This document shows positions 43,563 through 59,342 of a DNA stretch of 64,000 nt, one piece after another (positions within the stretch are counted from its first letter, which is position 1; each line of letters opens with the position of its first letter). A program made the translations under genes and the position numbers. This DNA comes from an uncultured Actinomycetota bacterium. Lineage in GTDB: Bacteria; Actinomycetota; Actinomycetes; Streptosporangiales; Streptosporangiaceae. The DNA lies in NCBI GenBank assembly GCA_963725175.1, contig CAVRXH010000006.1, positions 5,939,580 through 6,003,579 of the forward strand, in the 5' to 3' direction. The notes beneath the pieces are model-generated. The model saw only the letters and a program-made list of their open reading frames with translations. It was not told where the DNA came from and ran no database searches.

Positions 43563-43888
43563 TCCCCTCGTGAGGCCAGGCGCCCGGGAACCGCGCCCAG
43601 GGCTGGCGCGCGACGTCTGCCGTCCGGGAGAACCACCGGCCTGGAATCGCCGTCACCTGCGCTGACGACCCCCGGCCGCACCGGCCGGGTTTACCAGCTC
43701 GCGCTACCAGCGTCGCACAACCACCGCGACCGCGCTGCCTCCCGCCATGCCTGCCGACGGCGCCTAGTCCTGCAATTCGGTCAGCAGGGCCGAGTCTGTC
43801 GGCAACGTGCCGGGACAGCGCGGCGGCACATGCGGCGGTCGGCCGTTGGAGTAGTGGGAAAGTGGCCGCCGAGGCCTACTCTGGTGTC

Positions 43889-44119
43889 ATGACGATGACT
43901 GTCCACCTGCACGGCGATTTGGCTGCCGCGCTGGAGGCCGAGGCCGCCCGCCGCGGCCAGAGCCCCGAGCAGGTCGCCGCCGACCTGCTCGCTGAGCGGC
44001 TGCCGCCCGGCGGGAAGCGCCGCCGCAGGCTCGCCTTCGCTGGGGTCGGCGAGTCCGCCTCCGGCCGGTCAGCCTCCGAGGCTGACCGGATGCTGGCCGA
44101 GGGGTTCGGGCGCGACTAG
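43889..44119 (+). CDS. vapB: Ribbon-helix-helix antitoxin (VapB-like)
   Basis: MTMTVHLHGDLAAALEAEAARRGQSPEQVAADLLAE.. plus the C-terminal motif LAFAGVGESASGRSASEADRMLAEGFGRD. It is followed immediately by a PIN start. Confidence 0.7.
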   Translation: MTMTVHLHGDLAAALEAEAARRGQSPEQVAADLLAERLPPGGKRRRRLAFAGVGESASGRSASEADRMLAEGFGRD

Positions 44120-44227
44120 GTGCTGATCGTGGACACCGGGCCACTGGTCGCGGCGGCCGGTCTCCACATTCGGAGACCGGCCTTAAACCCGGACTGTGCG
44201 TGGGCGGTACTGGGATTGAACCAGTGA
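44120..44227 (+). pseudogene. Truncated vapC (only about 14 PIN-domain codons remain)
   Basis: GTG 44120 lies 1 nt after the vapB stop and encodes VLIVDTGPLVAAAG (compare the intact VapC MLIVDTGPLVAYLN at 48046). The frame then runs through the tRNA-operon hairpin into tRNA-Val and stops at 44227. Confidence 0.7.
44155..44182 (-). terminator. Hairpin downstream of the tRNA-Gly/Cys/Val operon
   Basis: Perfect 11-bp stem GGCCGGTCTCC / GGAGACCGGCC with a 6-nt loop, 19 nt past the 3' end of tRNA-Val(GAC). Confidence 0.55.
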
Positions 44228-44272
44228 CCCCTACCGTGTCAGGGTAGTGCTCTCCCGCTGAGCTAACCGCCC
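44201..44272 (-). tRNA. tRNA-Val (anticodon GAC)
   Basis: The reverse complement is GGGCGGTTAGCTCAGCGGGAGAGCACTACCCTGACACGGTAGGGGTCACTGGTTCAATCCCAGTACCGCCCA. It folds as a cloverleaf with a 7-bp acceptor stem and anticodon loop CTGACAC. Confidence 0.9.
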
Positions 44273-44276
44273 GCAG

Positions 44277-44348
44277 AGGCGGAAGCGGGAATCGAACCCG
44301 CGTAAGGGGCTTTGCAGGCCCCTGCCTAAGCCACTCGGCCATTCCGCC
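44277..44348 (-). tRNA. tRNA-Cys (anticodon GCA)
   Basis: The reverse complement is GGCGGAATGGCCGAGTGGCTTAGGCAGGGGCCTGCAAAGCCCCTTACGCGGGTTCGATTCCCGCTTCCGCCT. Anticodon stem GGGGC/GCCCC, loop CTGCAAA. Confidence 0.85.
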
Positions 44349-44429
44349 ACAAGCCGCCCCGGGGAGCTGGCCTGAGTATCTCTGAGCCGTACTGGCCGTC
44401 GACTCGCGAGACGGCTTCCGGCGCTTCCG

Positions 44430-44502
44430 AGCGGACGACGGGATTCGAACCCGCGACCCTCACCTTGGCAAGGTGATGCTCTACCAACTGAGCCACGTCC
44501 GC
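44430..44502 (-). tRNA. tRNA-Gly (anticodon GCC)
   Basis: The reverse complement is GCGGACGTGGCTCAGTTGGTAGAGCATCACCTTGCCAAGGTGAGGGTCGCGGGTTCGAATCCCGTCGTCCGCT. The anticodon loop contains TTGCCAA. Confidence 0.9.
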
Positions 44503-44800
44503 GTACTGCCAGCCGCTCCGGGCTGGCCCGGAGTACCACTGGCGTGCGTTCAGAACTGTAGCCGATCCTGACCGGCCCGCAAACTCGGCTGGGCCAGGGG
44601 ACCCGCGACCAGGGCGGGCAGACGGGGCATGCAGGGCGGTCGCCGCGCGTCAGGCCCGTTTCGTCCCAATTCCCTTCCCTGCCCCGCCCGCCGGGCCAGC
44701 GTCCCCGGAGCGAGCGCCGCAGCGACAGCGAACCTAGGTGCCAGGCCAGCAATCACGGCCCCCATCGCGGGAACTTATGCCCGGATGGGAGGCTGCTCCC

Positions 44801-46339
44801 ATGCGAACTGTGATCGTCTCCGGCGACGCCCTGACCGTGGATGACGTCGTTGACGTCGCACGCGGTGCCGCGCGCGCCGAGCTTGGCCCTGACGTGGCCA
44901 GGCGAATGGAATTCAGCCGGGATGTCGTGACGGCAGCGATCGCCGGTGACAGCCCGGTTTACGGCGTGAACACCGGCTTCGGGGCACTGGCCGACACCGC
45001 CGTCGGCGAGGCTGACCTGAGCAAGCTCCAGCGGGCGATCATCGTCTCGCACGGCGCGGGAGTCGGGCAGCCCCTGGACGACGCCGCGGTCCGGGCCATC
45101 CTGCTGCTCCGCGCCAGGACCCTGGCGGCCGGGCTGTCCGGGGTGCGCACCGACCTGCCGCGCCGCCTGCTTGAGCTGCTCGACCGCAACCTGCTGCCGG
45201 TCATCCCCGGCAAGGGCTCGGTCGGCGCGTCCGGGGACCTGGCGCAGCTCGCGCACCTGGCCCAGCCGCTGATCGGCGCGGGCCGGCTGCGCGCCGAAGG
45301 GGACGGGCCGCAGGGCCGGCCCGCCAGCGAGGTGCTGGCCGAGCATGGCATCGAGCCGCTGGTTCTCGGCCCGAAGGAGGGCCTGTCCCTGGTCAACGGC
45401 ACCGAGCCGATGCAGGCCCTGCTCGCGTTCTCGGTGCACGACGCGGCGCTGCTGGCGCAGGCCGCCGACGTGGCCTGCGCCATGTCGATCGAGGCGCTGC
45501 TCGGCACGGACCGCCCCTATGACGAGCGGGTCCAGGTGATCCGGCCGCATCAGGGCCAGCAGGACAGCGCCGCGAACCTGCGGGCGCTGCTGGCCGGCTC
45601 GCAGCTGATGGCCAGCCACCGGCATAGCCGCCACGCGGTCCAGGACGCCTACTGCCTGCGCTGCGCTCCCCAGGTGCACGGCGCCGTCCGGGACGTGCAC
45701 CGCTTCGCCAGGGGCGTGATCGACACCGAGCTGGGCGCGGTGGTGGACAACCCGGTCATCGTCGCCGACGGCGAGGTCATGACGACTGGAAACTTCCACG
45801 GCGAGCCGCTGGCGTTCGCGGCCGACATGCTCGGCATCGCCGTCGCCGAGTTCGCCAGCATCAGCGAGCGGCGGGTGGACCGGATGCTGGACCCGGCGTT
45901 CTCCCGCGGCCTGCCCGCGTTCCTGGCCCCGGACGCGGGCACGAACTCCGGCTTCATGCTGGCCCAGTACACCGCCGCATCCCTGGTCAGCGAGAACAAG
46001 GTGCTCGCCCATCCCGCCAGCGTCGACACCATCCCGACCTCGGGGAAGCAGGAAGATCACGTGTCGATGGGCTGGACGGGGGTCCGCAAGCTGCGGGAGA
46101 TCGTGGAGAATGTCCGGGCCTGCCTGGCGGTCGAGATCCTCTGCGCCGCCCAGGGCGTCGGCCTGCGTGCCGACATCGCGGCGCCGAGCGCCCCGGTCGC
46201 GGCGGTGCACGAGCTGATCAGGGCCCACGTGCCGAGCATGGATGTCGATCGCGAAGTTTCCGATCAGATAGCCGCCATCGACCAGCTACTGCCAGATATA
46301 TGCGCAACGGCCGCGCAGGCGTGCGGCGGGCTCAGATAG
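44801..46339 (+). CDS. hutH: Histidine ammonia-lyase
   Basis: ATG 44801 follows a GGGAGG SD. MIO-forming ASG triad in GSVGASGDLAQLAHLA. The ..IIVSHGAGVG.. segment carries the Ser-His pair typical of HAL rather than PAL/TAL. Confidence 0.88.
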   Translation: MRTVIVSGDALTVDDVVDVARGAARAELGPDVARRMEFSRDVVTAAIAGDSPVYGVNTGFGALADTAVGEADLSKLQRAIIVSHGAGVGQPLDDAAVRAILLLRARTLAAGLSGVRTDLPRRLLELLDRNLLPVIPGKGSVGASGDLAQLAHLAQPLIGAGRLRAEGDGPQGRPASEVLAEHGIEPLVLGPKEGLSLVNGTEPMQALLAFSVHDAALLAQAADVACAMSIEALLGTDRPYDERVQVIRPHQGQQDSAANLRALLAGSQLMASHRHSRHAVQDAYCLRCAPQVHGAVRDVHRFARGVIDTELGAVVDNPVIVADGEVMTTGNFHGEPLAFAADMLGIAVAEFASISERRVDRMLDPAFSRGLPAFLAPDAGTNSGFMLAQYTAASLVSENKVLAHPASVDTIPTSGKQEDHVSMGWTGVRKLREIVENVRACLAVEILCAAQGVGLRADIAAPSAPVAAVHELIRAHVPSMDVDREVSDQIAAIDQLLPDICATAAQACGGLR

Positions 46340-46496
46340 GCCAGTCACCCCGCGGGTAATTCCGGCGGAAAAGGCGCCGGTCCCGATATTGCGGGGGCGG
46401 GGCGGGGCGCCAGTGACGTGAGTGGCATTCTTACATGCGCCGGCCCGGCTCTCCAGCGAACCGGGCCGGGGTGCCGGCCGAGGGCCGGCGAGGTGC

Positions 46497-46919
46497 TCAG
46501 GCGCGCCAGAGCAGCTCGTCAAGCTCGGTGTCGACGTCGAGGAACTCGCCCTCGCGCCCGGCCGAGATCATGTCAAAGGTCCTGGTGAGGAACGCGGCGG
46601 TCGCCTCGCGCGGCGCCTCGAAGTGTGCCTCGCCGAACGGTGAGGACAGGGCCAGGTTCAGCACCGGCCTGCCGCGCTCATTCGACGGCCAGACCTGGAC
46701 ATCGCCCTCGCCGGCCGGGCCGTCGAGGCCCGCCGTGAGCAGCTCGCGTGCGAAGATCCACTCCACCGGCTCGTCGGCGCCGACGTGGAACGACATGCGG
46801 ATCGCATACGGGTCGTCGGCGCTGTAGCACAGGCTGGCCACGAGGGGAACGGCTCCGTGCTCGGGAACCACCAGGCTGAGACCAAGCTCAGCGGTCACGG
46901 TAGCGCTGCTGTTCATCAT
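46497..46919 (-). CDS. ssgB: SsgA-like sporulation/cell-division protein (SsgB-type SALP)
   Basis: ..ELGLSLVVPEHGAVPLVASLCYSADDPYAIRMSFHVGADEPVEWIFARELLTAGL..GDVQVWPS.. aligns by eye with SsgB. Confidence 0.8.
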   Translation of the reverse strand: MMNSSATVTAELGLSLVVPEHGAVPLVASLCYSADDPYAIRMSFHVGADEPVEWIFARELLTAGLDGPAGEGDVQVWPSNERGRPVLNLALSSPFGEAHFEAPREATAAFLTRTFDMISAGREGEFLDVDTELDELLWRA

Positions 46920-47394
46920 CGGGTCAGACCTTCTGCCTTGTCGTGTCCCGGATTGCCGGGCTTCATTATTGGTGTGCGTTTGCCATCACTTATGGCACTT
47001 AACGTGCCGCTGGAATGTCATCGCAGGAAGTAGATTCCGCGAATTGAGTCGCTCGTAACCTCGGTCAGCGTTCAACAAAACCGGCTTCACTAGCCCCGAC
47101 CTGGTCAAACGCTTCGGCAGATAAAACACGCTTTCCGGAGCGTCCTGTTCCATCCGGCCCCACGACCCAATGTGACCTTCGTCTCACTCGGGCCTGCTCC
47201 GGCGCGTCGCGCTTGCGGATCTGGCTCGCATGAGTGCGGAACAGCCTGCTGGGCAGGGGATTCCAGTCCGCCGCGACAGGCTGCCCGGAGACGACCTCGA
47301 ACTAACACAAAGGCCATAAATAGTAATAACTGGACAGGGCTATTGCCGCCGTCTCTGCCGTGACCAGTCATTCCCCGGGGTGATCTATGGGGCT

Positions 47395-47441
47395 CTGCGG
47401 GGGCCGCCGGCCGCCCGGAGGCGGTGGCCGCAGAGTTTTTT
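47395..47441 (+). terminator. Orphan Rho-independent terminator (candidate sRNA 3' end)
   Basis: GC-rich hairpin with outer stem CTGCGG/CCGCAG, inner stem GCCGCC../GGCGG.. and tetraloop CGGA. It is followed 2 nt later by TTTTTT. There is no plus-strand CDS upstream. Confidence 0.55.
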
Positions 47442-47584
47442 CCGGATCTCGCGCGGCGGCCCGGTCCTGGCACGGGCACGGCGGCCGGAAGCGGGACTAA
47501 CCGCCCGGGCCGGGCGCGGCGCCGCCCGTCCGCCGGATGCGCTAATCTGAGACCGCCGTCACGGACCCGGTCAGGCCGTGCCAC

Positions 47585-47656
47585 GGGCGATTGGCTCAGC
47601 GGAAGAGCGCTGCCTTCACACGGCAGAGGTCGCTGGTTCGAACCCAGCATCGCCCA
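47585..47656 (+). tRNA. tRNA-Val (anticodon CAC)
   Basis: GGGCGATTGGCTCAGCGGAAGAGCGCTGCCTTCACACGGCAGAGGTCGCTGGTTCGAACCCAGCATCGCCCA. Acceptor GGGCGAT/ATCGCCC, anticodon loop TTCACAC. Confidence 0.9.
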
Positions 47657-47671
47657 CACAGCATCGCCCAC
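47645..47671 (+). repeat. 13-bp perfect direct duplication of the tRNA-Val 3' end
   Basis: CAGCATCGCCCAC occurs at 47645-47657 (the last 12 nt of the tRNA plus 1) and again at 47659-47671. Confidence 0.9.
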
Positions 47672-47689
47672 CAGCACTAGTTCACCGAC

Positions 47690-47725
47690 AGGTCCCGCCC
47701 GGCACGCCGGGCGGGACCTTTTCTC
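47690..47725 (+). terminator. Rho-independent terminator of tRNA-Val(CAC)
   Basis: Perfect 13-bp stem AGGTCCCGCCCGG-cacg-CCGGGCGGGACCT followed by TTTCTC. Confidence 0.8.
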
Positions 47726-47804
47726 ATCTGCGGGGCAGCCGCTAATCATGTTGCCCTCGCTAGCGGCTATCTGGACCGGCACCGGAGAACGCGATGGGAA
47801 GCTC

Positions 47805-48059
47805 ATGCAGGCAGGCCGCTCCGTGCTGACGTACGCTGGGTTTGTGACAGCGGCTGACTACAGCGATCTCCACGAGCTCATTGACCGCCTGGAACCAGAA
47901 CAGGCCGAGGAGCTGCGTGAGCACGTACTCAGGCTGATTCACCCGGTTCGGAGCCGGTTTAAGGTGCTGCGGACCTTCAGCGGCCCCGAGGCCAACCTCG
48001 GCGTCAGGGCGCGGGAAGTCATGCGCGCTGACTTCGAGCGTGACGATGCTGATCGTTGA
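47805..48059 (+). CDS. vapB: Antitoxin of the VapBC-type module
   Basis: 84 aa. The C-terminal FKVLRTFSGPEANLGVRAREVMRADFERDDADR resembles the toxin-binding tail of the 43889 antitoxin. It overlaps the PIN gene by 14-20 nt. An alternative ATG lies at 47748. Confidence 0.65.
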   Translation: MQAGRSVLTYAGFVTAADYSDLHELIDRLEPEQAEELREHVLRLIHPVRSRFKVLRTFSGPEANLGVRAREVMRADFERDDADR

Positions 48060-48456
48060 TACCGGCCCGCTCGTCGCTTACCTGAATCACAACGATCCAG
48101 ATCACGCTCGCTGCGCCGAACTTCTGGACTCGCGCACCGATGATCTTCTCGTGACCCCCTACGTCATCACCGAGGCCTGTTACCTCGTCGGGAAGTACGT
48201 CGGACCGGAGGCCGAGATCAACCTGGTTGAGGCGCTCGCCGCGGGGGACCTGAGCCAGATTGATGTCCCGGCAGGAGATCTGATCCGCATGGCCGAACTC
48301 ATGCGGCAGTACATCGGCTTCCCGCTGGGTGTTGCCGATGCGTCGGTCATCGCCACCGCCGAGCGCCTTCGGGCCACCGAGGTGGCCACACTGGACCGGC
48401 GGCACTTCCACGCGGTACGACCGGCCCACGTGACGGCGCTGAAGCTGCTTCCTTAA
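48040..48456 (+). CDS. vapC: PIN-domain ribonuclease toxin VapC
   Basis: MTMLIVDTGPLVAYLN..LLVTPYVITEACYLV..GVADASVIATAERL..VATLDRRHF carries the conserved acidic PIN residues. Confidence 0.85.
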   Translation: MTMLIVDTGPLVAYLNHNDPDHARCAELLDSRTDDLLVTPYVITEACYLVGKYVGPEAEINLVEALAAGDLSQIDVPAGDLIRMAELMRQYIGFPLGVADASVIATAERLRATEVATLDRRHFHAVRPAHVTALKLLP

Positions 48457-48533
48457 GGCTGTCGGGGCTGCCGTCCGATAGGAGAGTTGGCGGGGCGGGC
48501 AGGGAAATCGGGCAGACGGGACCGGCTGGTCCT

Positions 48534-49976
48534 GTGCAGACTGGCGGCGTGCTGCTGACGATCTCCACGACTCATGCTCCGGCGTCCGATCTCGGGTACC
48601 TGCTGCATAAGCACCCCGGCCGGGTTCAGGCGTTCCCGCAGTCGGTGGGCACCGCGCACGTCTTCTACCCGGCGGTCAGCGACGAGCGCTGCACGGTGGC
48701 GCTGCTGCTGGAGGTTGACCCGGTGGCGCTGGCGCGCGGCCGGGCGGGCCGGCGCGGCGAGGCGTTCCCGCTGGGGCAGTACGTCAGCGACCGGCCCTAT
48801 GTCGCGTCCAGCATGCTCGCGATGGCGCTCAAGGATGTCTTCCGCACGGCGCTGACCGGGCGCTGCGACGCCCGTCCGGAACTGGCCGCCGCGGCGATCC
48901 CGCTGGAGATCGGAATCCCGGCGGTGCCCAGCCGCGGCGATGCGGACCTGCCCCGGCGGCTGTTCGGGCCGCTGGGCTGGCAGGTCGCGGCGGCTCGCGG
49001 GCCGCTTGACCCGGAGATCCCGGACTGGGGCGACTCGCCGTACGCCGATGTCCGGCTCACCGGCGAGCTCCGGCTGGCCGATGCCCTGAACCACCTGTAC
49101 GTGCTGCTCCCGGTGCTGGACGACGCCAAGCACTACTGGGTCAGCGAGGACGAGATCGGCAAGCTGCTCCGCGCGGGCGAGGGCTGGCTGCCGTCGCACC
49201 CGGAGCAGGAACTGATCACCCGGCGGTACCTGTCGCACCAGCGGGACCTGGCCAGGTCGGCGCTGGCCCGGCTGGCGGAGGCCGACGACGCCGGGCCGGC
49301 CGAGTTCGACAACGCCCCGGACGGCGCGGTCGCGCTCGATGACCCGCGGCGGCCAGGCGAGCTGGCCGGGCAGCGGCGGGCGGCGGTGCTCGCCGCGGTG
49401 CTGGCGTCGGGGGCGCGCCGGGTCGGTGACCTGGGCTGCGGCGAGGGCCTGCTGGCGGCGGACCTGCTGGCCGCGCCGGGCATCGAGCAGGTAGTGGCCA
49501 CCGACGTGTCGGCGCGGGCGCTCCAGATCGCCGCGCGGCGGCTGGGCCTGGACCAGATGCCGGACCGGCAGCGGCAGCGCCTGGAGATCTTCCAGTCGGC
49601 GCTGACCTACCGCGACGACCGGCTGGCGGGCCTGGACGCCGCCGTCCTGATGGAGGTGATCGAGCACATCGACCCGCCGCGGCTGGACACGCTGGAACGG
49701 GTGGTTCTCGGCCACGCGGCCCCGGCCACGGTGATCATCACCACCCCGAACGCGGAGCACAACGTGCTGTTCGACGGCCTGCGAGCGGGCGGGCTGCGGC
49801 ACGCGGACCACCGGTTCGAGTGGACGCGCGAGCAGTTCAGGGCCTGGGCGAGCCGGGCGGCGGCCGCCTACGGGTACACGGCCGCGTTCGCCGGAATCGG
49901 CCCCGACGACCCGCGGGTCGGGCCGCCGACCCAGCTCGCCATCCTGACCAGGACCGGGGCGGAGGTGCCCGCATGA
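48534..49976 (+). CDS. hen1: 3'-terminal RNA ribose 2'-O-methyltransferase Hen1 (bacterial RNA repair)
   Basis: N-terminal Hen1 ligase-activating domain (..LLTISTTHAPASDLGYLLHKHPGRVQ..) and C-terminal methyltransferase (..VGDLGCGEGLL.., ..LMEVIEHIDPPRL.., ..HRFEWTREQF..). The start may be GTG 48549. Confidence 0.85.
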   Translation: MQTGGVLLTISTTHAPASDLGYLLHKHPGRVQAFPQSVGTAHVFYPAVSDERCTVALLLEVDPVALARGRAGRRGEAFPLGQYVSDRPYVASSMLAMALKDVFRTALTGRCDARPELAAAAIPLEIGIPAVPSRGDADLPRRLFGPLGWQVAAARGPLDPEIPDWGDSPYADVRLTGELRLADALNHLYVLLPVLDDAKHYWVSEDEIGKLLRAGEGWLPSHPEQELITRRYLSHQRDLARSALARLAEADDAGPAEFDNAPDGAVALDDPRRPGELAGQRRAAVLAAVLASGARRVGDLGCGEGLLAADLLAAPGIEQVVATDVSARALQIAARRLGLDQMPDRQRQRLEIFQSALTYRDDRLAGLDAAVLMEVIEHIDPPRLDTLERVVLGHAAPATVIITTPNAEHNVLFDGLRAGGLRHADHRFEWTREQFRAWASRAAAAYGYTAAFAGIGPDDPRVGPPTQLAILTRTGAEVPA

Positions 49977-52558
49977 GCGCGGAACTGGGTGTCCCCGAGC
50001 TGAGCCTGATCGTGCTGATCGGCGTCACGGGGTCGGGAAAATCGACGTTCGCCCGGACGCGCTTCCGGCCGACTGAGGTCATCTCCTCGGACTTCTGCCG
50101 CGGCCTGGTCGCCGACGACGAGAACGACCAGTCGGCGACGCCCGAGGCCTTCGAGCTGCTCTCCTACATCGTCGGCAAGCGCCTGGCGGGGGGCCGGCTG
50201 ACCGTGGTGGACGCGACCAGCGTCCAGCCGGGCGCCCGCAGGCCGCTGGTCGCCCTGGCCAGGGAGCACGACGTGCTGCCGGTCGCGATCGTGCTGGATG
50301 TCCCCGAGGGCACCTGCGCGGCCAGGAACGCGGCGCGGCCGGACCGGGACTACGGCAGCCAGGTGGTCCGCCGCCAGCACGACCAGCTCCGGCGCGGTCT
50401 CAGCGGGCTGCGCCGGGAGGGCTTCCGCGCGGTCCACGTGCTGCGCGGCACGGCCGAGATCGACGCGGCGAGCATCACCAGGACCCGGCTGTACAACGAC
50501 CTGCGTGCCGAGAACGGGCCGTTCGACGTCATCGGCGACGTGCACGGCTGCCGCGCCGAGCTGGAAGGGCTGCTGGCCGAGCTGGGCTACGAGATCACCA
50601 GGGACGGCCAGGGCCGTGCCACGGGCGCGCACCACGAGGGCCGCCGGGCGGTCTTCGTCGGGGACCTGGTGGACCGGGGCCCGGACACTCCCGGCGTGCT
50701 GCGGCTGGTGCTGGGGATGGTCTCCGCCCAGGACGCGTACTGCGTGATGGGCAATCACGAGAGCAAGCTGCTGCGGGCCCTGCGCGGCAGCAAGGTCCAG
50801 GTCAGTCACGGCCTCGCGCAGTCGCTGGCGCAACTGGAGTCGGAGCCGCAGGAGTTCAGGATCGAGGTTGAGCGGTTCCTCGACGGGCTGATCAGCCACT
50901 ACGTCTTTGACGGCGGGCGGCTGGTGGTGGCGCACGCGGGCCTGATCGAGCGGTACCAGGGCCGCGCGTCGGGACGGGTCCGGTCGTTCTGCCTGTACGG
51001 CGACACCACGGGGGAGACCGACGAGTACGGGCTGCCGGTCCGCTACCCGTGGGCCCGCGACTATCGCGGCGCGGCGATGGTGCTGTACGGGCACACGCCG
51101 GTGCCCGCGCCGGAATGGGTCAACAACACGCTCTGCCTGGACACCGGCTGCGTGTTCGGCGGCCGCCTCACGGCGCTGCGCTATCCCGAGCGGGCGATCG
51201 TCTCGGTGCCCGCCACCGCCGTGCACTACGAGCCGGCCAGGCCGTTCCCGGCCAGCCCGGAGGCGGGCGGCGAGACCGGGCCGGAGGCCGGCGGGGCGGT
51301 GGCGGGCCGCCGGGAGCCCGACGTGCTCGACATCACCGACGTCACCGGGACGCGGGTCATCGAGACGGCGTACCAGCCGCGCATCGGGGTGCGCGAGGAG
51401 AACGCGGCGGCGGCGCTTGAGGTGATGAGCAGGTTCGCGATCGATCCCCGCTGGCTGGTGTACCTGCCGCCGACCATGAGCCCGGTCGCCAGCTCGGCCG
51501 AGCCCGGCCTGCTGGAGCACCCGGCGCAGGCGTTCGACTACTTCAGGACCGCCGGCGTCGGCCAGGTCGTGTGCGAGGAAAAGCACATGGGCTCGCGGGC
51601 GGTCGCGCTGGTCTGCCGGACGCCGGGCGAGGCCAGCGCCAGGTTCGGCGTGCCGGACGGCCAGGCGGGAGCGGTGTGGACCCGCACCGGGCGGGCGTTC
51701 TTCCGCGACGAGCTGACCGGGCAGTTCACCGGCCGGCTGCGGGAGGCAGCCGAACGGGCCGGGCTGTTCGTCGAGCTGGACACCCCCTGGCTGCTGTTCG
51801 ACGCCGAGCTGATGCCGTGGAGCGCCAAGGCCGGCCCGCTGCTGCGCGACCAGTACGCGGCGATCGGCGCGGCGGCCCGTGCCGCGCTCCCGGCCGCCGT
51901 GGCGACCCTGGAGCAGGGGGCAGCGGCCGGGCTGGACCTGGGCGAGTTGCTCGGCCGCATGAAGGGGCGGGAGGCCCGCGCCGCCGCGTTCACGGCTGCC
52001 TACCGGCGGTACTGCTGGCCGGTTGCGGAACTAGCTGGCATCAGGTTCGCGCCGTTCCAGCTCCTGGCCAGCGCGGGGGCGGTGCACCAGGAGCGGCCGC
52101 ACGGCTGGCACCTGGCCCTGGCCGACCGGCTGGCCGGCGCCGACCCGGAGCTGATCGCGGTCACCCGGCGGACTGTCGTGGACGTCACGGACCCAGGCTC
52201 GGTCGCGGCGGGGTGCGAGTGGTGGGCCCGGCTGACCGGGGACGGTGGCGAGGGCATGGTGGTCAAGCCGGCCCGGAACCTGGCCAGGGACCGCAAGGGG
52301 CTGGTGCAGCCGGGCCTGAAGGTGCGCGGCCGGGAGTACCTGCGGCTGATCTACGGCCCCGACTACACCGAGCCGGCGAACCTGGAACGGCTGCGCACCC
52401 GGAGCCTGGGCCACAAGCGCTCGCTGGCGCTGCGCGAGTACGCGCTCGGCCTGGAGGCGCTGGACCGGCTAGCCAGGGGCGAGCCGCTGTGGCGAGTACA
52501 CCAGTGCGTCTTCGCCGTCCTGGCCCTCGAATCCGAGCCAGTCGACCCGCGCCTGTAG
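49973..52558 (+). CDS. pnkp: Polynucleotide kinase-phosphatase-ligase Pnkp (bacterial RNA repair)
   Basis: ATGA overlap with hen1. Kinase P-loop GVTGSGKST. Metallophosphatase motifs GDVHGC, GDLVDRGP and GNHE. A C-terminal ligase-like domain is present. 861 aa. Confidence 0.88.
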   Translation: MSAELGVPELSLIVLIGVTGSGKSTFARTRFRPTEVISSDFCRGLVADDENDQSATPEAFELLSYIVGKRLAGGRLTVVDATSVQPGARRPLVALAREHDVLPVAIVLDVPEGTCAARNAARPDRDYGSQVVRRQHDQLRRGLSGLRREGFRAVHVLRGTAEIDAASITRTRLYNDLRAENGPFDVIGDVHGCRAELEGLLAELGYEITRDGQGRATGAHHEGRRAVFVGDLVDRGPDTPGVLRLVLGMVSAQDAYCVMGNHESKLLRALRGSKVQVSHGLAQSLAQLESEPQEFRIEVERFLDGLISHYVFDGGRLVVAHAGLIERYQGRASGRVRSFCLYGDTTGETDEYGLPVRYPWARDYRGAAMVLYGHTPVPAPEWVNNTLCLDTGCVFGGRLTALRYPERAIVSVPATAVHYEPARPFPASPEAGGETGPEAGGAVAGRREPDVLDITDVTGTRVIETAYQPRIGVREENAAAALEVMSRFAIDPRWLVYLPPTMSPVASSAEPGLLEHPAQAFDYFRTAGVGQVVCEEKHMGSRAVALVCRTPGEASARFGVPDGQAGAVWTRTGRAFFRDELTGQFTGRLREAAERAGLFVELDTPWLLFDAELMPWSAKAGPLLRDQYAAIGAAARAALPAAVATLEQGAAAGLDLGELLGRMKGREARAAAFTAAYRRYCWPVAELAGIRFAPFQLLASAGAVHQERPHGWHLALADRLAGADPELIAVTRRTVVDVTDPGSVAAGCEWWARLTGDGGEGMVVKPARNLARDRKGLVQPGLKVRGREYLRLIYGPDYTEPANLERLRTRSLGHKRSLALREYALGLEALDRLARGEPLWRVHQCVFAVLALESEPVDPRL

Positions 52559-52724
52559 TCGTCAGCGTGCTCGCGCGCCGCGAACCTCCCGCATTCCCGC
52601 GCGCCGTGGACCGATCGCCCCGTCATCCGCCAACTGGAAAGGAAAACCCGGCCCACAAGGAGCCGGGTGGTATATAGGGCAACTATAACGCGCTTACCGT
52701 GAGCCTGCTTCCCGGTGACGGGAA

Positions 52725-53456
52725 CTACCAGCCATCTGGGCGCTGGTACTGGCCAGCCGGATTCGGGAGCTGATGGTTCTTGAGGTCGGCAGCTGTCAGT
52801 CTGGCCCACCAGTGCCGCCCGGCCCCGGCTGCGGGATCTCCGCGCAAATCACCAGCCAGGTAGTTGCGCGAAGGATTGATCAGGCCGACCGGGACGTGCA
52901 GCCGGGCTTGCTCGACGGGGAACCGCAGGTCACTGTCATTGGAGATGACAAGTGCCGCGTCGACAGCACCGCCCAGAACGTCCAGCAGCAGGTGCGCTGC
53001 CACGTTGACGTCAGAGCCCTTTTCCTCGCGATTGGCATACGACACCATGAATACCGCATCCGAGACAGGGCCGCCTCGGCCGTCCTGGACCATCACCGGC
53101 CAGGTGGGTCCGACCAGTTCGGGCCGCCCCTGCTGGTCTTTCACCGCGAGCGGGGCAGTCTTCACCCGAGCCACATAAGTTCCATACTCGATGTGGTCGA
53201 CGCTGCCCGTCGCTAGCAGGGCCTTGAGGTAGACGTCCTGATCAGCCTGCCCGGAGGGGTTTGAGACGCCGTCGATCCGAGCGGTGCGGTACACCACCCT
53301 GTCCACCTGCGCGCCGCGCCAGCTCGCTCGCCGCCCTGTCAGGTCCGACGCCAGCGTGCGCAGGTCCAGCCAGCGCCATCCCGGAGTGCTCCGGCCGCAC
53401 AGGCCTCGGGCACCGTAGTACACATTGAAGCCATCCACGTACACACCGACGCGCAT
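52725..53456 (-). CDS. NYN-domain (LabA/DUF88-like) predicted ribonuclease
   Basis: [15 protein letters not shown].. (first acidic motif), ..[16 protein letters not shown].. and ..[10 protein letters not shown].. follow the NYN pattern. GC content looks lower than in neighbouring genes. Confidence 0.75.
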
Positions 53457-53722
53457 TGACGGAAGCTAGCAGCAGCTACCGACACGCGCTCGCAGTAACG
53501 GGCGGGTGGCCCGGTGGTGCGCGAAGCTGAGCAAGGGAGGCCGCACGGTAGCGGCGATTTGTCCCGGCGCCCGCTCCCGGCCGTTTGGTTTGGTTACGTT
53601 GTGTGAAAGTGGCAAAGCTATGTGTAGTCATAGCAGTGCCGGCATCGTGCTGATCCGCTGATCTGCCTTACGAGCGTCGGCGCGAGAGAAGTCAGCTGCT
53701 GCCGCGCTTGTGAGGACGCGCC

Positions 53723-54040
53723 GTGCCCGGACCACTCGCCGCCGCGACCCGCGTCATCGGCGGTCACTCGGCCAAGGTGGCGCTCTCGCTGTCCGCGCGG
53801 CAGATTGTCATCATCTGCGTCATCCTGGGCGCGTTCGCCGTCCTGGTGATCCTGCCGGTGCTGGGCGGCATGCTGGTGGACGTGGTCAGCGCTGGCGCGG
53901 CCAAGTTCGGCGTGGCGGTGTTCTTCATGGGCCTGGGCACGCTGGGCCTCGGGCTGATCGCCAGCGTGCAGTTTCTCACCGTCATCGGGGCCTGCCTGGT
54001 CGGCGCCGTCGTCCTCGGCGCGATCTTCGACAACTACTAG
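53723..54040 (+). CDS. Small membrane protein (3 predicted TM segments)
   Basis: Strong GC3 bias throughout. Sequence ..IVIICVILGAFAVLVILPVLGG.., ..FGVAVFFMGLGTLGLGLIA.., ..VIGACLVGAVVLGAIF... Confidence 0.65.
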   Translation: MPGPLAAATRVIGGHSAKVALSLSARQIVIICVILGAFAVLVILPVLGGMLVDVVSAGAAKFGVAVFFMGLGTLGLGLIASVQFLTVIGACLVGAVVLGAIFDNY

Positions 54041-54142
54041 CCCCCTCGCGCTGCCCGCGTCGGCGTCCATTTCTTAAAGATTTGGTAAAGGGCGCTGACC
54101 GGCCGAAACTTGCGGCATCGCTCCTGCATACTCGATGCGGTG

Positions 54143-54562
54143 ATGACTCTTCGGATTCAAATAGTCACAAAGCGTAGTATTCGCTGCGCCCTTGCCTCGA
54201 CGGGGCTGGCTGCCGCCCTGGCGCTGACCGGCTGCGGCGGAAGTTCCGCGCCGTCAGCGAGCGCCCAGCCGAGCACCAGCTCCGCGTCTAGCACGGCGCA
54301 CGCGGCCGCCGACTCGGTGGTCATTCACATGTTCGCGTTCCACCCCGGCACCCTGACGGTGTCGCCGGGCGCGACGGTCAAGGTCCGCAACGCGGACTCG
54401 ACGACGCACACGCTGACGGACAAGGCCAATCCGAAGCTGTTCAGCACCGGCGATATCGGCCCCGGTCAGACCAGGACCTTCAAGGCGCCGACCAAGCCCG
54501 GAAGCTATCCGTTCTTCTGCCAGATCCACCAGTACATGACCGGGACCCTCGTCGTGAGCTAG
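54143..54562 (+). CDS. Cupredoxin (amicyanin/plastocyanin-like blue-copper) lipoprotein
   Basis: Lipobox LALTGC. Type-1 copper ligand pattern His (..STTHTL..) plus C-x2-H-x2-M (FFCQIHQYM). Confidence 0.75.
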   Translation: MTLRIQIVTKRSIRCALASTGLAAALALTGCGGSSAPSASAQPSTSSASSTAHAAADSVVIHMFAFHPGTLTVSPGATVKVRNADSTTHTLTDKANPKLFSTGDIGPGQTRTFKAPTKPGSYPFFCQIHQYMTGTLVVS

Positions 54563-54596
54563 CCGATCAGGGCCTCCGCAACACGAGGGAGGGCAC

Positions 54597-55469
54597 ATGG
54601 AACTTGACGAGGCCGCGCTGCGCGGGCTGACCGAGGAATCGCGAGATACCCATGCCGACGCGATCCGCGCGATCTCCGAACCTCTGGACGACATGGTCGA
54701 CCTCGGCCGCCAGGCGAGGTCGCGAAACGCCCTGGACCCGGACGAGAACGCCAGCTTCGCCGGCCTGAACCGGCGGCAGCTCGCGGCCACCGCCCGGCGG
54801 GGCGGCGGCCTGCTCGCCGCTACCGGAGTCCTCGCGGCGCTCGCCGACTTCATCGGCAGCCCCGCCTTCGCCGCGTCGGGAACCGACATCCAGGTGCTGC
54901 AGACGGCCTCCTCGATCGAGGTCCTGGCCATCTCCACCTACAAGACCGCGCTCACCCTCCCGTACATCGGCGGCAGCTCCGCGAACCCGGTCATCAAGGC
55001 CTTCGCGACCACCACGAAGAAGCAGCACCAGGACCACCTGGCGGCCTTCCAGGCCGCGACCACCGCGCTGGGCGGGAAGAAGCAGACCAAGCCCGACCCG
55101 AAGTTCGTGCCGGTGGTGGACAAGGCCGTCAAGTCGATCACCAAGGCCTCGCCGGCCAAGGGATCGCTGCTGGTCGTCGGCCTGGCCCTGGAGCTGGAGA
55201 ACATCGCGGCGGAGACCTATGTCAACAACATGAGCCTGCTCGCCGACGCGAACGCGAAGAAGGTCACCGCGAGCATCATGGGCGTGGAGGCTCAGCACGT
55301 CGCCATCCTGCTGGCGGTCCGCGCCCTCCTGAAGGCGGGCGACGCGGCCGACATCACGCTGCCCCCGCCGACGGCCAAGCTCCCGGCCGCCGCCGGCAAG
55401 GTCGGCTTCCCGAACGCCTTCTACCCGACGAGCAGCGCTGCCCCGGCAGCTCAGGGAGCAGTGAAATGA
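54597..55469 (+). CDS. Ferritin-like-domain protein with an internal twin-arginine signal
   Basis: ..NRRQLAATARRGGGLLAATGVLAALA.. is followed by ..LQTASSIEVLAISTY.., ..HQDHLAAF.. and ..LELENIAAETY..MGVEAQHVAIL.. (di-metal ferritin-like helices). Confidence 0.7.
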   Translation: MELDEAALRGLTEESRDTHADAIRAISEPLDDMVDLGRQARSRNALDPDENASFAGLNRRQLAATARRGGGLLAATGVLAALADFIGSPAFAASGTDIQVLQTASSIEVLAISTYKTALTLPYIGGSSANPVIKAFATTTKKQHQDHLAAFQAATTALGGKKQTKPDPKFVPVVDKAVKSITKASPAKGSLLVVGLALELENIAAETYVNNMSLLADANAKKVTASIMGVEAQHVAILLAVRALLKAGDAADITLPPPTAKLPAAAGKVGFPNAFYPTSSAAPAAQGAVK

Positions 55470-56305
55470 CCGCCATCGATCCCGGCTCGCACCTGTCAGA
55501 CGGCGAGATCCGCAGCATGACCCAGGATCTGGACGCCCTGCATCACGACCTCACCCTGCCCGCCCTGACGGACAGCCTCAGCGAGTGGGCGGAGGAGATC
55601 CACGAGCGCGATGCCTCCGGCGAGGACGAGCAAGAGGATGCCGCGCAGTCGGCGTTCCTCGCCCGCCGCAGGTTCCTGGTCGCCACGGGCGGCATCGCGG
55701 GCGCGGCCCTCATCGCGGCCTGCGGCAGCTCCGCGGCGCCCCAGTCAGGCTCCAGCCCGTCCGGCTCCGCGCAGGCGACGAGCGGCGGCGAGGGGCAGCA
55801 GCTCAGCGGCGACCTGCGGGTGGTCGCGATGGCCGCGAGCCTGGAGAACTCCGGCATCGCGACCTACAAGTCCGGCCTCAAGGCGGCCAAGGCCGGCAAG
55901 CTCGGCACGGTACCGCCGGCCATCGTCACCTTCGTGGAGACGGTGATGGGCCAGCACCAGGACCATCAGAAGGCGTGGAACGCCGTGCTCACCTCGGCGG
56001 GCAAGCAGCCGGTGACCACCGTTGATCCGGTGATCCAGCCCACCATCAACACGGCTTTCGGGAAGGTGACCACGGTCACCGGGCTGGCCAAGCTTGCCCT
56101 GCAGGTCGAGAACATCGCGGGCGAGACCTATCAGAACGGGCTGTCGGTCATCAAGAGCCCGGCCGGGATCAAGACCGCCGCCTCGATCCAGCCAGTCGAG
56201 TTCCAGCACGCCGCGATCCTGTCCTACGTCCTCGGCAAGTACCCGGTGCCCAGCGCCTTCACCGGCACCACCCTCGCCAGGCCGCCGAGCGACTACCGCA
56301 CCTAG
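55466..56305 (+). CDS. Ferritin-like-domain Tat lipoprotein (paralogue of the previous gene)
   Basis: ATGA overlap. ..ARRRFLVATGGIAGAALIAAC.. is followed by ..ASLENSGIATY.., ..HQDHQKAW.., ..LQVENIAGETY.. and ..VEFQHAAIL... Confidence 0.7.
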   Translation: MTAIDPGSHLSDGEIRSMTQDLDALHHDLTLPALTDSLSEWAEEIHERDASGEDEQEDAAQSAFLARRRFLVATGGIAGAALIAACGSSAAPQSGSSPSGSAQATSGGEGQQLSGDLRVVAMAASLENSGIATYKSGLKAAKAGKLGTVPPAIVTFVETVMGQHQDHQKAWNAVLTSAGKQPVTTVDPVIQPTINTAFGKVTTVTGLAKLALQVENIAGETYQNGLSVIKSPAGIKTAASIQPVEFQHAAILSYVLGKYPVPSAFTGTTLARPPSDYRT

Positions 56306-56408
56306 GGGCACGGCGAAGCGGGCGGTGGCCGGCAGCGGATCGTGAGCGCTGACGGCCGCCGCCCGCCGCGCGCCGCAGCGGAATGCAGCGCGGTGTCATG
56401 CGCAGATG

Positions 56409-56468
56409 AGCAACCAAGGGTTGCGCTTGAGGTCACGCCTCGCTACAGTGATGTGCAACCAAACGTTG
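56409..56468. promoter_or_regulatory. Two near-identical 15-bp palindromes upstream of the SRPBCC-ArsR operon (candidate ArsR operators)
   Basis: GCAACcaaggGTTGC (56409-56423) and GCAACcaaacGTTGC (56454-56468), with centres 45 bp apart. Confidence 0.65.
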
Positions 56469-56494
56469 CGAAAAGTGGCCGAGAGGCGGGGGCT

Positions 56495-56956
56495 ATGGAA
56501 TACGGCTCGATCGAGCGGGAGATCCGGATCGACGCGCCGCCGGAGATCGTCTTCGACGTGGTGAGCGACCCGGTGCACGTCCAGCAGTGGTGGCCGGACG
56601 AGGCCAGCTACGAGGCGGTGCCGGGCAGCTCGGGGGAGATCGTCTTCATCAGGGACGGCGAGCGGGTCCCGATGGCCTTCCAGGTGGTCGACGCGGTCCC
56701 GCCCCGGCTGTTCTCGTTCCGCTGGACGCAGCCAGACGGCGAGCCCGCCAGGCCGGACAACTCTTTCCTGGTGACCTTCGATCTGGAGCCGGCCGGCGGC
56801 GGCACGCTGCTGCGGATGACCGAGACGGGCTTCCGGGAGCGCGGCTGGGAGGCCGCCGTCCTGGAGGAGGCCTACCGGGACCACGCCAGCGGCTGGGACC
56901 ACTACCTGCCGCGGCTGGCGCCCTACATCCAGAAGTACCTCGAATCGGCGCGATGA
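56495..56956 (+). CDS. SRPBCC-family (Aha1/BPI-like) protein
   Basis: MEYGSIEREIRIDAPPEIVFDVVSDPVHVQQWWPDE.. is the typical start of ArsR-linked SRPBCC proteins. Confidence 0.8.
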   Translation: MEYGSIEREIRIDAPPEIVFDVVSDPVHVQQWWPDEASYEAVPGSSGEIVFIRDGERVPMAFQVVDAVPPRLFSFRWTQPDGEPARPDNSFLVTFDLEPAGGGTLLRMTETGFRERGWEAAVLEEAYRDHASGWDHYLPRLAPYIQKYLESAR

Positions 56957-57348
56957 GCAGCGTCGTGACCAACACCGGCGCGTTGAGCACCGTGGACGAC
57001 GCGCTCTGGTCCGCGGTGGGCGACCCGACCCGGCGGCGGATGCTCGACCTGCTGCTCGCCGAGGGCAGCGGGACCGCGACCAGCCTGAGCGCGCGGCTCC
57101 CGGTGACCAGGCAGGCGGTCGCCAAGCACCTCGTGGTGCTGGACCGGGCCGGCCTGGTGCGCGGCGTCACCGCCGGGCGGGAGAAGCAGTACCGAGTCGA
57201 CTCCGCGCAGCTCGCGCGGGCCGTCGCGCAGCTCGCCGAGGTGGGCGCCAGCTGGGACCGGCGGCTGCGGCGGATCAAGGAGATCGCCGAGGCCATCGGG
57301 GAGCGGGCCCGCGAGCAGGCCGAGAAGGACGATGGGAAGGAGCAGTGA
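56953..57348 (+). CDS. ArsR/SmtB-family transcriptional regulator
   Basis: ATGA overlap. Sequence ..VGDPTRRRMLDLLLAEGSGTATSLSARLPVTRQAVAKHLVVLDRAGLV... Confidence 0.85.
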   Translation: MSSVVTNTGALSTVDDALWSAVGDPTRRRMLDLLLAEGSGTATSLSARLPVTRQAVAKHLVVLDRAGLVRGVTAGREKQYRVDSAQLARAVAQLAEVGASWDRRLRRIKEIAEAIGERAREQAEKDDGKEQ

Positions 57349-57350
57349 CA

Positions 57351-57497
57351 ATGCCAGACATCCTGCACCGCATCGGCGTCGAGGGATCGACGTCCAGCAC
57401 CAAGCGGGGCTCGTTCCTGATGAGCCTCAAGCAGCTCCTGGAGACCGGCGAAGGGGCACCGGACCCCCGCGACGTGCACATCAGCGACTGGCACTGA
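57351..57497 (+). pseudogene. 48-codon remnant of a third operon gene, apparently internally deleted
   Basis: It encodes MPDILHRIGVEGSTSSTKRGSFLMSLKQLLETGEGAPDPRDVHISDWH*. The N-terminal MPDILHRIGV and the C-terminal SLKQLLETGEG.P.P...ISDW look like the two ends of a ~150-aa ArsR-associated protein, but this family assignment is from memory only. Confidence 0.4.
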
Positions 57498-57530
57498 GCC
57501 GTTCGACTGGCAATGAGCCGTTCGCAGTTC

Positions 57531-57564
57531 CCGGCGGAGTCCTTCTCCCGAAGGGCTCCGCCGG
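57531..57564 (+). terminator. Hairpin after the ArsR operon
   Basis: CCGGCGGAGTCCTTC-tccc-GAAGGGCTCCGCCGG forms a 15-bp stem including one G-U pair. There is no T-run. Confidence 0.55.
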
Positions 57565-57716
57565 AACGCGTGCCGGCCGCGCGGTGGTCCGCGCTTATGC
57601 ACAGCGGACGGGCCGGATCAAGGAGCAAATGGTGTGCTACGCCATTCTCTGGGCGACACGTTACTGATCGTTTACGCCGGCAATAGGTTCCCCGCTAATC
57701 GAGTCGGGTACGCACC

Positions 57717-59087: not shown

Positions 59088-59342
59088 GCCCGCCTGCCAG
59101 CCGGCCGCCCGCCCGGTTCCCCGCCACGGGGGTCCGGGCGGGCTCATGTCCGGACCTGGCAGGCGCTGACCTGCGTTCACGCCCGGATCGCCGGTGGTTC
59201 ACCGATCTGGGTGACAAAGTCGTATCCGTTTCTTAACGATCATTTATGCGCGCTTGCCAGAGCGGCTAACTGGCTTCCGTACCTGCGAAGTCCTGGTATA
59301 CATCAGGTCATCCGACGTATCGCCCGTCCTTGAGAGGGCTGG

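Follow-up and report, generated by a model that had tools for sequence, protein, structure and literature searches.

The window analyzed here, a stretch of 64,000 nucleotides from an uncultured Actinomycetota bacterium of the Streptosporangiaceae (assembly GCA_963725175.1, contig CAVRXH010000006.1, positions 5,939,580 to 6,003,579 of the forward strand), raises the question whether genes for cutting RNA and genes for repairing it that lie side by side form one system. Downstream of a tRNA-Val(CAC) gene (47585-47657), the plus strand carries a vapB-type antitoxin gene (47805-48059), which overlaps by 14 nt the start of vapC, encoding a PIN-domain RNase (48046-48456), followed by the RNA repair genes hen1 (48534-49976) and pnkp (49973-52558). 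A gene for a solitary NYN-fold predicted RNase (52725-53456, minus strand) converges on them. An earlier sequence-only reading of the window had combined these five genes into a single damage-repair circuit. All five were found where that reading had placed them or a few bases off, and their identification proved correct by Pfam, NCBIfam, PADLOC and PDB profile and structure matches. Our results make it highly likely, however, that the locus is a canonical hen1-pnkp operon next to which vapBC and the NYN gene dropped in independently, that is, a chance neighborhood and not a new damage-repair system. The combination is lineage-specific, and each of its modules belongs to an already known kind.

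The first line of evidence is the lack of conserved linkage. We surveyed the 80 closest Hen1 loci (56-72% identity; the best 80 of at least 586 matches, all Actinomycetota) in a collection with one genome per species, with genera including Frankia, Kribbella, Streptomyces, Micromonospora and Nocardia as well as metagenome-assembled genomes of Streptosporangiaceae. The order hen1-then-pnkp is kept in all 80 loci. tblastn searches for the antitoxin, the PIN protein, the NYN protein and the products of the genes flanking them in the window did not detect any of these within 10 kb on either side of a single one of the 80 hen1-pnkp pairs. Genes called by GC content at third codon positions (GC3) and scanned with Pfam comprised 122 upstream neighbors (within 1.3 kb), 114 downstream neighbors (within 1.3 kb) and 110 small genes within 3 kb. 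These neighbors are heterogeneous. The recurrent families, GTP cyclohydrolase I (13), luciferase-like monooxygenase (11), TetR, GH127 and YbaK-type tRNA_edit (11), are most likely genus-level synteny partners. PIN and NYN were outside the top 25 Pfam families in all three neighbor sets, which caps PIN at two to three genes per set. A regular-expression search for the N-terminal motif with subsequent Pfam confirmation, of uncertain sensitivity, turned up a single PIN gene close to hen1, that of L010; the far zone yielded no PIN gene. Hidden Markov models built from close homologues had no additional match at the 80 loci. A known PIN_10 control and the PIN gene of L164 described below escaped these models as well, which hence are no general test for PIN genes.

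The reverse survey gave the same picture. It covered 70 metagenome loci with VapC relatives; past the PIN gene, the sequence runs on for 600 nt or more in 51 of them and for 1.5 kb or more in 26. Neither Hen1 nor Pnkp nor NYN was found in any of the 70. The 97 neighboring proteins at these loci fall into 64 clusters, and two long contigs (L082, L083) with VapC homologues of 79-82% identity place them in unrelated contexts. An 844-aa gene located 3' of vapC in L082 was considered as a divergent Pnkp and rejected, as it gave no tblastn and no Pfam match. The full gene combination is thus absent from the 80 hen1-pnkp loci, the 70 VapC-relative loci and the three NYN contexts inspected, and occurs in conspecific contigs only. 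PIN and NYN genes are thus not enriched next to Pnkp/Hen1 in related genomes, an outcome that the sequence-only reading itself had named as refuting, and the proposal of a single circuit is not supported. It is further undercut by vapBC and NYN relatives that occur elsewhere without Hen1/Pnkp, by an intact hen1-pnkp in a close relative that lacks the other modules, and by a promoter-like element of hen1 itself, the last two of which are described in the following.

The close relative, a JGI contig (L162, 1-9769), is collinear with window positions 46884-60136 at about 97% nucleotide identity. It keeps tRNA-Val(CAC) as well as full-length Hen1 (97% amino acid identity) and Pnkp (96.6%). By blastn, it lacks window positions 47798-48061, which hold all of vapB, and 48134-48390, the core of vapC, so that only PIN residues 9-33 and 118-138 are left. 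It also lacks positions 52558-53702, a segment of 1,145 nt with the NYN gene and its flanks, and 54315-56405, which hold most of a cupredoxin gene and two Ferritin_2 genes. Because the NYN segment is absent from this contig, with about 94 nt in its place, it forms an insertion or deletion unit. The repair operon is evidently maintained without vapBC and without the NYN gene. Two conspecific contigs (L081, L084) show the same gene arrangement as the window. In L167, which encodes a Hen1 75% identical to that of the window, ssgA (74% identical) is followed by tRNA-Val(CAC), a gene for an FtsX-domain protein and then hen1-pnkp. Based on the comparison of L162, L084 and L167, hen1-pnkp located 3' of ssgA and tRNA-Val appears to be the stable, ancestral core of the locus, and the intervals flanking it appear to be variable slots. 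In all, four clean indels set L162 apart from the window and leave hen1-pnkp untouched, with antitoxin and toxin core gone together. This joint loss is what would be expected if a lone toxin were harmful, an indirect hint that the toxin may inhibit growth and be neutralized by its antitoxin.

Base composition separates the same modules. The antitoxin, PIN and NYN genes have a GC content of 63-66%, compared to 74-75% for hen1 and pnkp. Their GC3 values of 0.73, 0.77 and 0.77, respectively, are the three lowest among the real genes of the window (mean 0.90, standard deviation 0.06), whereas hen1 and pnkp reach 0.94 and 0.95. The remark in the sequence-only reading that vapBC and the NYN gene look less GC-rich than hen1/pnkp, and that the island may be mosaic, is therefore right by both measures. 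Such differing composition indicates separate histories of vapBC, the NYN gene and hen1-pnkp.

A third line of evidence comes from the region upstream of hen1. We aligned the sequences located 5' of the hen1 GTG from 78 loci, comparing 70 nt of upstream sequence in L001-L080 and L162-L169. The start codon is GTG in 75 of the 78 aligned loci. A -10-like hexamer of the form nAnnnT, the end of which is about 6 nt ahead of the GTG, begins at one of the positions -14 to -11 (12, 21, 25 and 12 loci per offset, compared to 0-6 at other positions). An AA[AT] block is present at -46 to -40 in 54 of the 78 loci, whereas the background mean is 2.7. In the nearest relatives, the common pattern is AAAT-GGnCGCGACG-N18-(A/G)AGACT-N6-GTG, in which GCGACG is found at about -37 to -31. 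The window itself carries AAAT at 48505-48508, a -35-like GCAGACG at 48512-48518 and a -10-like CAGACT at 48537-48542 (together a predicted promoter at 48505-48542, plus strand), the last of which ends 6 nt before a GTG at position 48549. Leaderless mRNAs are common in actinomycetes. From this geometry we infer a sigma70-type promoter for a leaderless mRNA and, consequently, a hen1-pnkp operon that kept its own promoter within the 92 nt following vapC. Such a promoter is indicated because the positional signal holds in 78 loci despite differing upstream genes: the nearest one is on the same strand in 46 loci and on the opposite strand in 30. The conserved element suggests a leaderless transcript and possibly a site for a shared regulator. 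The commonly called start, GTG 48534, would fall within this predicted promoter. The true start of hen1 is probably GTG 48549, 15 nt further inside, which would give a protein of 475 aa; most Hen1 homologues have 471-476 aa.

Some observations weigh against the reading of hen1-pnkp with independent drop-ins. The forward survey is restricted to the best-matching loci, all of them from one phylum. No terminator is predicted in the gap of 77-92 nt (depending on the hen1 start) between vapC and hen1, so read-through from vapC and co-transcription would be possible. Moreover, the nearest non-conspecific lineage inspected (L164/L165, Hen1 77% identical) carries another vapBC near hen1 (L164:6323-7070, L165:4680-5427). 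It consists of a FitA-like ribbon-helix-helix (RHH) antitoxin and a 133-aa PIN protein (PF01850, E=4.6e-9) and is divergently oriented, with the vapB start 97 nt from the hen1 GTG. The PIN gene of L010, unrelated and on the opposite strand, is located 1.76 kb upstream of hen1. In L167 (9045-9266) and L168 (5242-5463), an orphan gene for a 73-aa RHH protein (FitA-like or RHH_1) converges on the 3' end of pnkp without a toxin gene next to it; it could be what is left of a toxin-antitoxin pair or else a small regulator. L166 contains a Phd/YefM gene 4 kb upstream of hen1-pnkp. A weak preference of PIN genes for the surroundings of hen1 is possible. In Anabaena, finally, translational stress leads to late induction of both hen1-pnkP and seven vapC genes (PMC8421152), and because of this co-induction a relation of vapC and hen1-pnkp in trans is conceivable.

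These points have to be set against the diversity of the modules involved. The PIN proteins of the window, of L164/L165 and of L010 do not match each other in tblastn or phmmer searches, and their orientations and antitoxins differ. No toxin-antitoxin or PIN gene was found near hen1-pnkp in L163, which was also inspected. Hen1-free contexts of the clade contain toxin-antitoxin or PIN-like genes at a similar rate, for example the DUF433/PIN_10 pair of L086 and the Mut7-C gene of L091. We read the PIN modules that other lineages carry close to hen1 as a scatter of abundant cassettes. In L164/L165, the vapB and hen1 promoters must share the 97-nt region between the two genes.

The rival explanation that survives best, unlikely as it is, regards the surroundings of tRNA-Val as a recombination hotspot that loosely gathers genes for RNA conflict and defense. 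The toxin-antitoxin pair, hen1-pnkp as an anti-ribotoxin repair operon and the NYN gene as an anti-phage candidate would share a theme and be co-selected without any direct interaction. This would account for the strong variation among close relatives, seen as indels of vapBC, of the NYN gene and of the cupredoxin/ferritin genes in L162 and as an additional insertion sequence (IS) in L084. The hotspot reading also gains from the match of the NYN protein to the PADLOC candidate HEC-09, from an NYN homologue that has Wadjet, IS elements and a further toxin-antitoxin pair as neighbors (L086, L087), and from the position of the VapC homologue in L082 between large helicase genes. But the interval contains neither an integrase nor a transposase, and the 3' end of the tRNA is not repeated there in the manner of an att site. 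The vapBC and NYN relatives elsewhere are not beside tRNA genes and were not found in viral contigs. The neighbors of hen1-pnkp in the 80 genomes are ordinary metabolic or regulatory genes and not defense genes, and the other variable genes of the locus, encoding cupredoxin and Ferritin_2 proteins, are non-defense as well. Furthermore, the type member HEC-09 gave no phage protection in tests (bioRxiv 10.1101/2024.01.29.577857).

Three related ideas on the origin of the locus were rejected. A tRNA-targeted integrative island was dismissed, as positions 47300-57500 lack integrase and transposase genes and contain only short chance repeats of the tRNA-Val 3' end. The idea that such cassettes generally adjoin tRNA genes failed, since no credible tRNA gene was detected in 24 loci with vapBC or NYN homologues, the single odd call (a four-base anticodon in L083) being located about 7 kb from vapBC. 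A phage origin of vapBC or the NYN gene was discarded after scans of viral contigs revealed no relatives of either.

A functional circuit has even less in its favor. PIN nucleases hydrolyze RNA in a metal-dependent manner, without the 2'-OH as nucleophile. PMC7180214, citing McKenzie 2012, states that VapC cuts leave 3'-OH and 5'-phosphate ends, which bears out a caveat on PIN end chemistry already raised in the sequence-only reading. The ends left by PIN and NYN nucleases are accordingly expected to be 3'-OH/5'-phosphate and ill-matched to the healing steps and the 2'-O-methylation logic of Pnkp/Hen1. Because such ends need no healing, two of the four activities that Pnkp/Hen1 provides, namely kinase and phosphatase, would be idle on them. 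Hen1 protects since the 2'-OH that it methylates is the nucleophile of metal-independent, transesterifying ribotoxins (PMC4411300). As only these toxins use the 2'-OH, 2'-O-methylation would leave a metal-dependent, hydrolytic nuclease with its nucleophile. The chemistry weakens the circuit idea, although sealing stays chemically possible, as 3'-OH/5'-phosphate ends are ligatable and the 3'-terminal ribose is methylatable.

In such a circuit, VapC, and perhaps the NYN protein, would cut tRNA or rRNA, Pnkp/Hen1 would reseal the break and methylate it against recutting, and read-through from vapBC would couple the two processes. Co-orientation, the short gap without a predicted terminator, the identical arrangement in L081 and L084, the unrelated vapBC abutting hen1 in L164/L165, the PIN gene of L010 and the co-induction in Anabaena all speak for it. 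Against it stand the missing linkage at every surveyed locus in both directions, the intact hen1-pnkp beside a decayed vapBC and without NYN gene in L162, the conserved promoter-like element of hen1, the separate histories indicated by composition, the poor fit of the end chemistry, and the non-homologous, differently oriented PIN modules near hen1 in other lineages. Taken together, we consider this circuit very improbable. Equally hard to credit is the variant that hen1-pnkp of this clade repeatedly captured PIN toxin-antitoxin cassettes beside its promoter (co-oriented in the window, divergent with a 97-nt shared control region in L164/L165). In this variant, a cell that loses the antitoxin would release the RNase and at the same time express more of the repair operon, the products of which would rejoin the severed rRNA or tRNA. 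If true, the action of a VapC toxin would come with its own means of reversal, and Pnkp/Hen1 would have its first assigned in vivo substrate.

The favored reading of an operon with independent drop-ins translates into the following picture. hen1-pnkp would have stayed in its old position 3' of ssgA and tRNA-Val(CAC), flanked by two variable slots. In this lineage, the upstream slot holds a mobile type II toxin-antitoxin cassette, in which the 84-aa antitoxin is paired with a PIN RNase resembling VapC26. Judged by homology, this RNase would cleave 23S rRNA or a tRNA in a metal-dependent manner once the antitoxin is lost. The downstream slot is occupied by the solitary HEC-09-type NYN-fold predicted RNase. 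All three modules would have been gained independently and could be lost in the same way. hen1-pnkp would most likely be transcribed as a leaderless mRNA from its own conserved promoter and act as a general heal-methylate-seal system: Pnkp would remove the 2',3'-cyclic phosphate and phosphorylate the 5'-OH, Hen1 would methylate the 2'-OH, and the Pnkp ligase would then seal the break.

The repair operon itself is unambiguous. Hen1 scores 681 bits against TIGR04074 (cut-off 340) and matches Hen1_L (PF12623, E=1.7e-114) as well as several methyltransferase families. Matches to PDB entries 4dqz for the N-terminal domain and 3jwh for the methyltransferase, in addition to 4drf, reveal the known layout of an N-terminal domain activating the Pnkp ligase and a C-terminal S-adenosylmethionine-dependent RNA 3'-terminal ribose 2'-O-methyltransferase domain. 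Pnkp (861 aa) reaches 1372 bits against TIGR04075 (cut-off 750). Its AAA_33 (1.2e-27), Metallophos (3.8e-12) and PNKP_ligase (2.1e-178) domains, with PDB matches for all three C. thermocellum domain structures, predict that a single protein unites a P-loop polynucleotide 5'-kinase, a 2',3'-phosphatase of the binuclear metallophosphatase type and, at its C-terminus, an adenylyltransferase/RNA ligase. The claim that pnkp is coupled to hen1 by an ATGA overlap was confirmed, as the overlap can be read directly off the sequence at 49973-49976.

Bacterial RNA repair by Pnkp/Hen1 was reportedly described by Chan, Zhou and Huang in 2009, and the structures are said to come from the Shuman lab. The systems of C. 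thermocellum and Anabaena variabilis share with the window copy the two-domain Hen1, the three-domain Pnkp and the translationally coupled operon. We found nothing substantive that differs. The window copy is of the actinomycete kind, and its GTG 48549 is probably a leaderless start. For the family as a whole, in vivo substrates are still to be assigned (PMC4411300), and an own conserved promoter combined with a leaderless GTG start, as predicted for actinomycete hen1-pnkp, offers a handle for asking what induces the operon. In Kribbella (L019-L039 and other loci of this genus), tRNA_edit (11), GTP cyclohydrolase I (13) and DUF6099 (8) genes recur within 3 kb of hen1-pnkp, most likely through synteny at the genus level; a tRNA-editing neighbor fits the theme of RNA repair.

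RNA repair operons that answer RNase toxins have a conceptual precedent in RtcB/RtcA and PrfH-RtcB: in E. coli, ectopic VapC or colicin D switches on rtcBA (PMC7790460), and PrfH/RtcB repairs ribosome damage (PMC9304027). These operons differ from hen1-pnkp in their enzymes and their regulation, and no RtcR-like regulator is encoded at the locus. There, too, the toxin gene is located outside the repair locus.

The PIN protein was assigned by PF01850 (E=1.2e-15, 58.6 bits, cut-off 23.6). Identical database copies (P0121, 136 aa) start at ATG 48046 and not at GTG 48040. Its closest solved relative is VapC26 of M. tuberculosis (PDB 5x3t_B, E=1.2e-25, 126 residues aligned), and residues D5, E43, D98 and D117 each face the same amino acid of VapC26 in the alignment. 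Both VapC26 and VapC20 cleave 23S rRNA at the sarcin-ricin loop, and the target of a VapC can be predicted from its phylogenetic position (PMC5175351). For this reason we infer 23S rRNA or a tRNA as the RNA target of the window VapC.

The 84-aa antitoxin lacks a credible match in Pfam, NCBIfam, PADLOC and, by phmmer, PDB, and these searches did not reveal a DNA-binding fold of the RHH, AbrB, Phd/YefM or helix-turn-helix kind. Nevertheless, the open reading frame is a genuine gene, because homologues (57-74% identity) are located directly 5' of and overlapping PIN homologues in 31 of the 70 metagenome loci and additionally in L082 and L083. Since these 31 loci keep the antitoxin 5' of the toxin gene and none of the 70 carries Hen1, Pnkp or NYN, the pair is a genuine, self-contained and widely scattered cassette. 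In all loci found, L092-L125, L082 and L083 among them, this antitoxin family is paired with VapC26-like toxins. Current profiles miss this type of VapB, and VapC26-like toxins have a conserved antitoxin family beyond the present profile libraries. VapBC26 (Rv0581/Rv0582, PDB 5X3T) resembles the window pair in the four acidic residues of the toxin and in the antitoxin gene located 5' of, and overlapping, the toxin gene. It differs in its antitoxin, as the 84-aa protein has no detectable similarity to VapB26.

The NYN assignment required more than one criterion, as the protein (243 aa) scores 20.1 bits against Pfam NYN (PF01936) and thus remains below the gathering cut-off of 24.2. Many of its homologues (72-87% identity) have a precomputed PF01936 match. 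The protein matches PADLOC HEC-09 in two stretches (E=1.4e-24, 84.9 bits), the better of which aligns residues 2-99 with positions 3-89 of the 203-position profile. Across 24 homologues, D8, D87, E144, E145, D149, N173 and D176 as well as the motifs VDGFN, EEKGSDV and SNDSDL are invariant. An AlphaFold model (predicted local distance difference test, pLDDT, 74.7; predicted template modeling score, pTM, 0.76) retrieved LabA-like 2qip with a Foldseek probability of 1.0 (target-normalized TM-score 0.59) and the MARF1 NYN domains 5yaa and 6fdl with 0.99-1.0. The HEC-09 match, the invariant acidic motifs and the fold matches of the model support an NYN-fold (LabA/MARF1-like) predicted RNase of HEC-09 type despite the sub-threshold Pfam score. 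About 55 residues between the core elements (93-150) have very low confidence in this model (m56a250a678f8), yet their sequence is highly conserved.

The known HEC-09 (PADLOC; Payne et al. preprint) likewise is a single gene with an NYN fold and conserved aspartates. The window gene differs in being located outside Hma or any other defense system, with pnkp, the gene for a small membrane protein and that for cupredoxin as neighbors, and in carrying the poorly modeled stretch. Of three contexts of homologues 80-85% identical, one (L086, L087) adjoins a defense system, JetABCD (Wadjet), and is also surrounded by IS elements and a further toxin-antitoxin pair, and two are among metabolic genes (L090, L091). 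The family comprises more than 100 clusters at 72-87% identity and is very abundant in soil metagenomes (4,677 matches among 8,000 scored candidates). In L086 (8001-16735) and L087, the 85%-identical homologue is located about 1.3 kb from JetABCD, with a gene for a 143-aa protein in between. The jetD gene of L086 looks fused with or broken by an rve integrase domain, and IS elements and the DUF433/PIN_10 pair are close by.

As it stands, the locus is a small addition, with another actinomycete hen1-pnkp, another vapBC and another HEC-09-like NYN gene. It also provides an example of neighbors that share a theme and thereby suggest a system which comparative genomics fails to support. The near-identical loci with and without vapBC and the NYN gene would be a natural comparison pair if the organisms were cultured.

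Some minor features complete the description of the locus. An Rfam E-value scan of positions 43000-57000 for a non-coding RNA partner, such as a Y RNA, identified four tRNAs only. Upstream, a tRNA-Val(GAC)/Cys/Gly cluster is followed by a histidine/aromatic ammonia-lyase gene (44738-46339) and then by the SsgA-family sporulation/cell-division gene located 5' of tRNA-Val(CAC); the minus-strand coordinates cited for these upstream features are 44200-44502 and 46497-46919. The tRNA-Val(CAC) gene, called by ARAGORN and with an Rfam tRNA score of 67.9 bits, is followed at 47690-47719 (plus strand) by an intrinsic-terminator-like hairpin of 13 pairs (11 of them G-C) and the sequence TTTTCTC. A second terminator-like hairpin with a T-run (52646-52668, minus strand) follows the NYN gene at its 3' side, where this gene and pnkp converge and leave a gap. 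The extra IS of L084 (6157-7089, corresponding to about position 56300 of the window, where it is absent) is of the DDE_Tnp_1 type and separates the second Ferritin_2 gene from the AHSA1/Polyketide_cyc2 gene. Positions 53723-54040 of the window encode a predicted membrane protein of 105 aa without a Pfam match. Its gene adjoins pnkp in L162 (91% amino acid identity) and thus is the direct downstream neighbor of pnkp where the NYN segment is absent.

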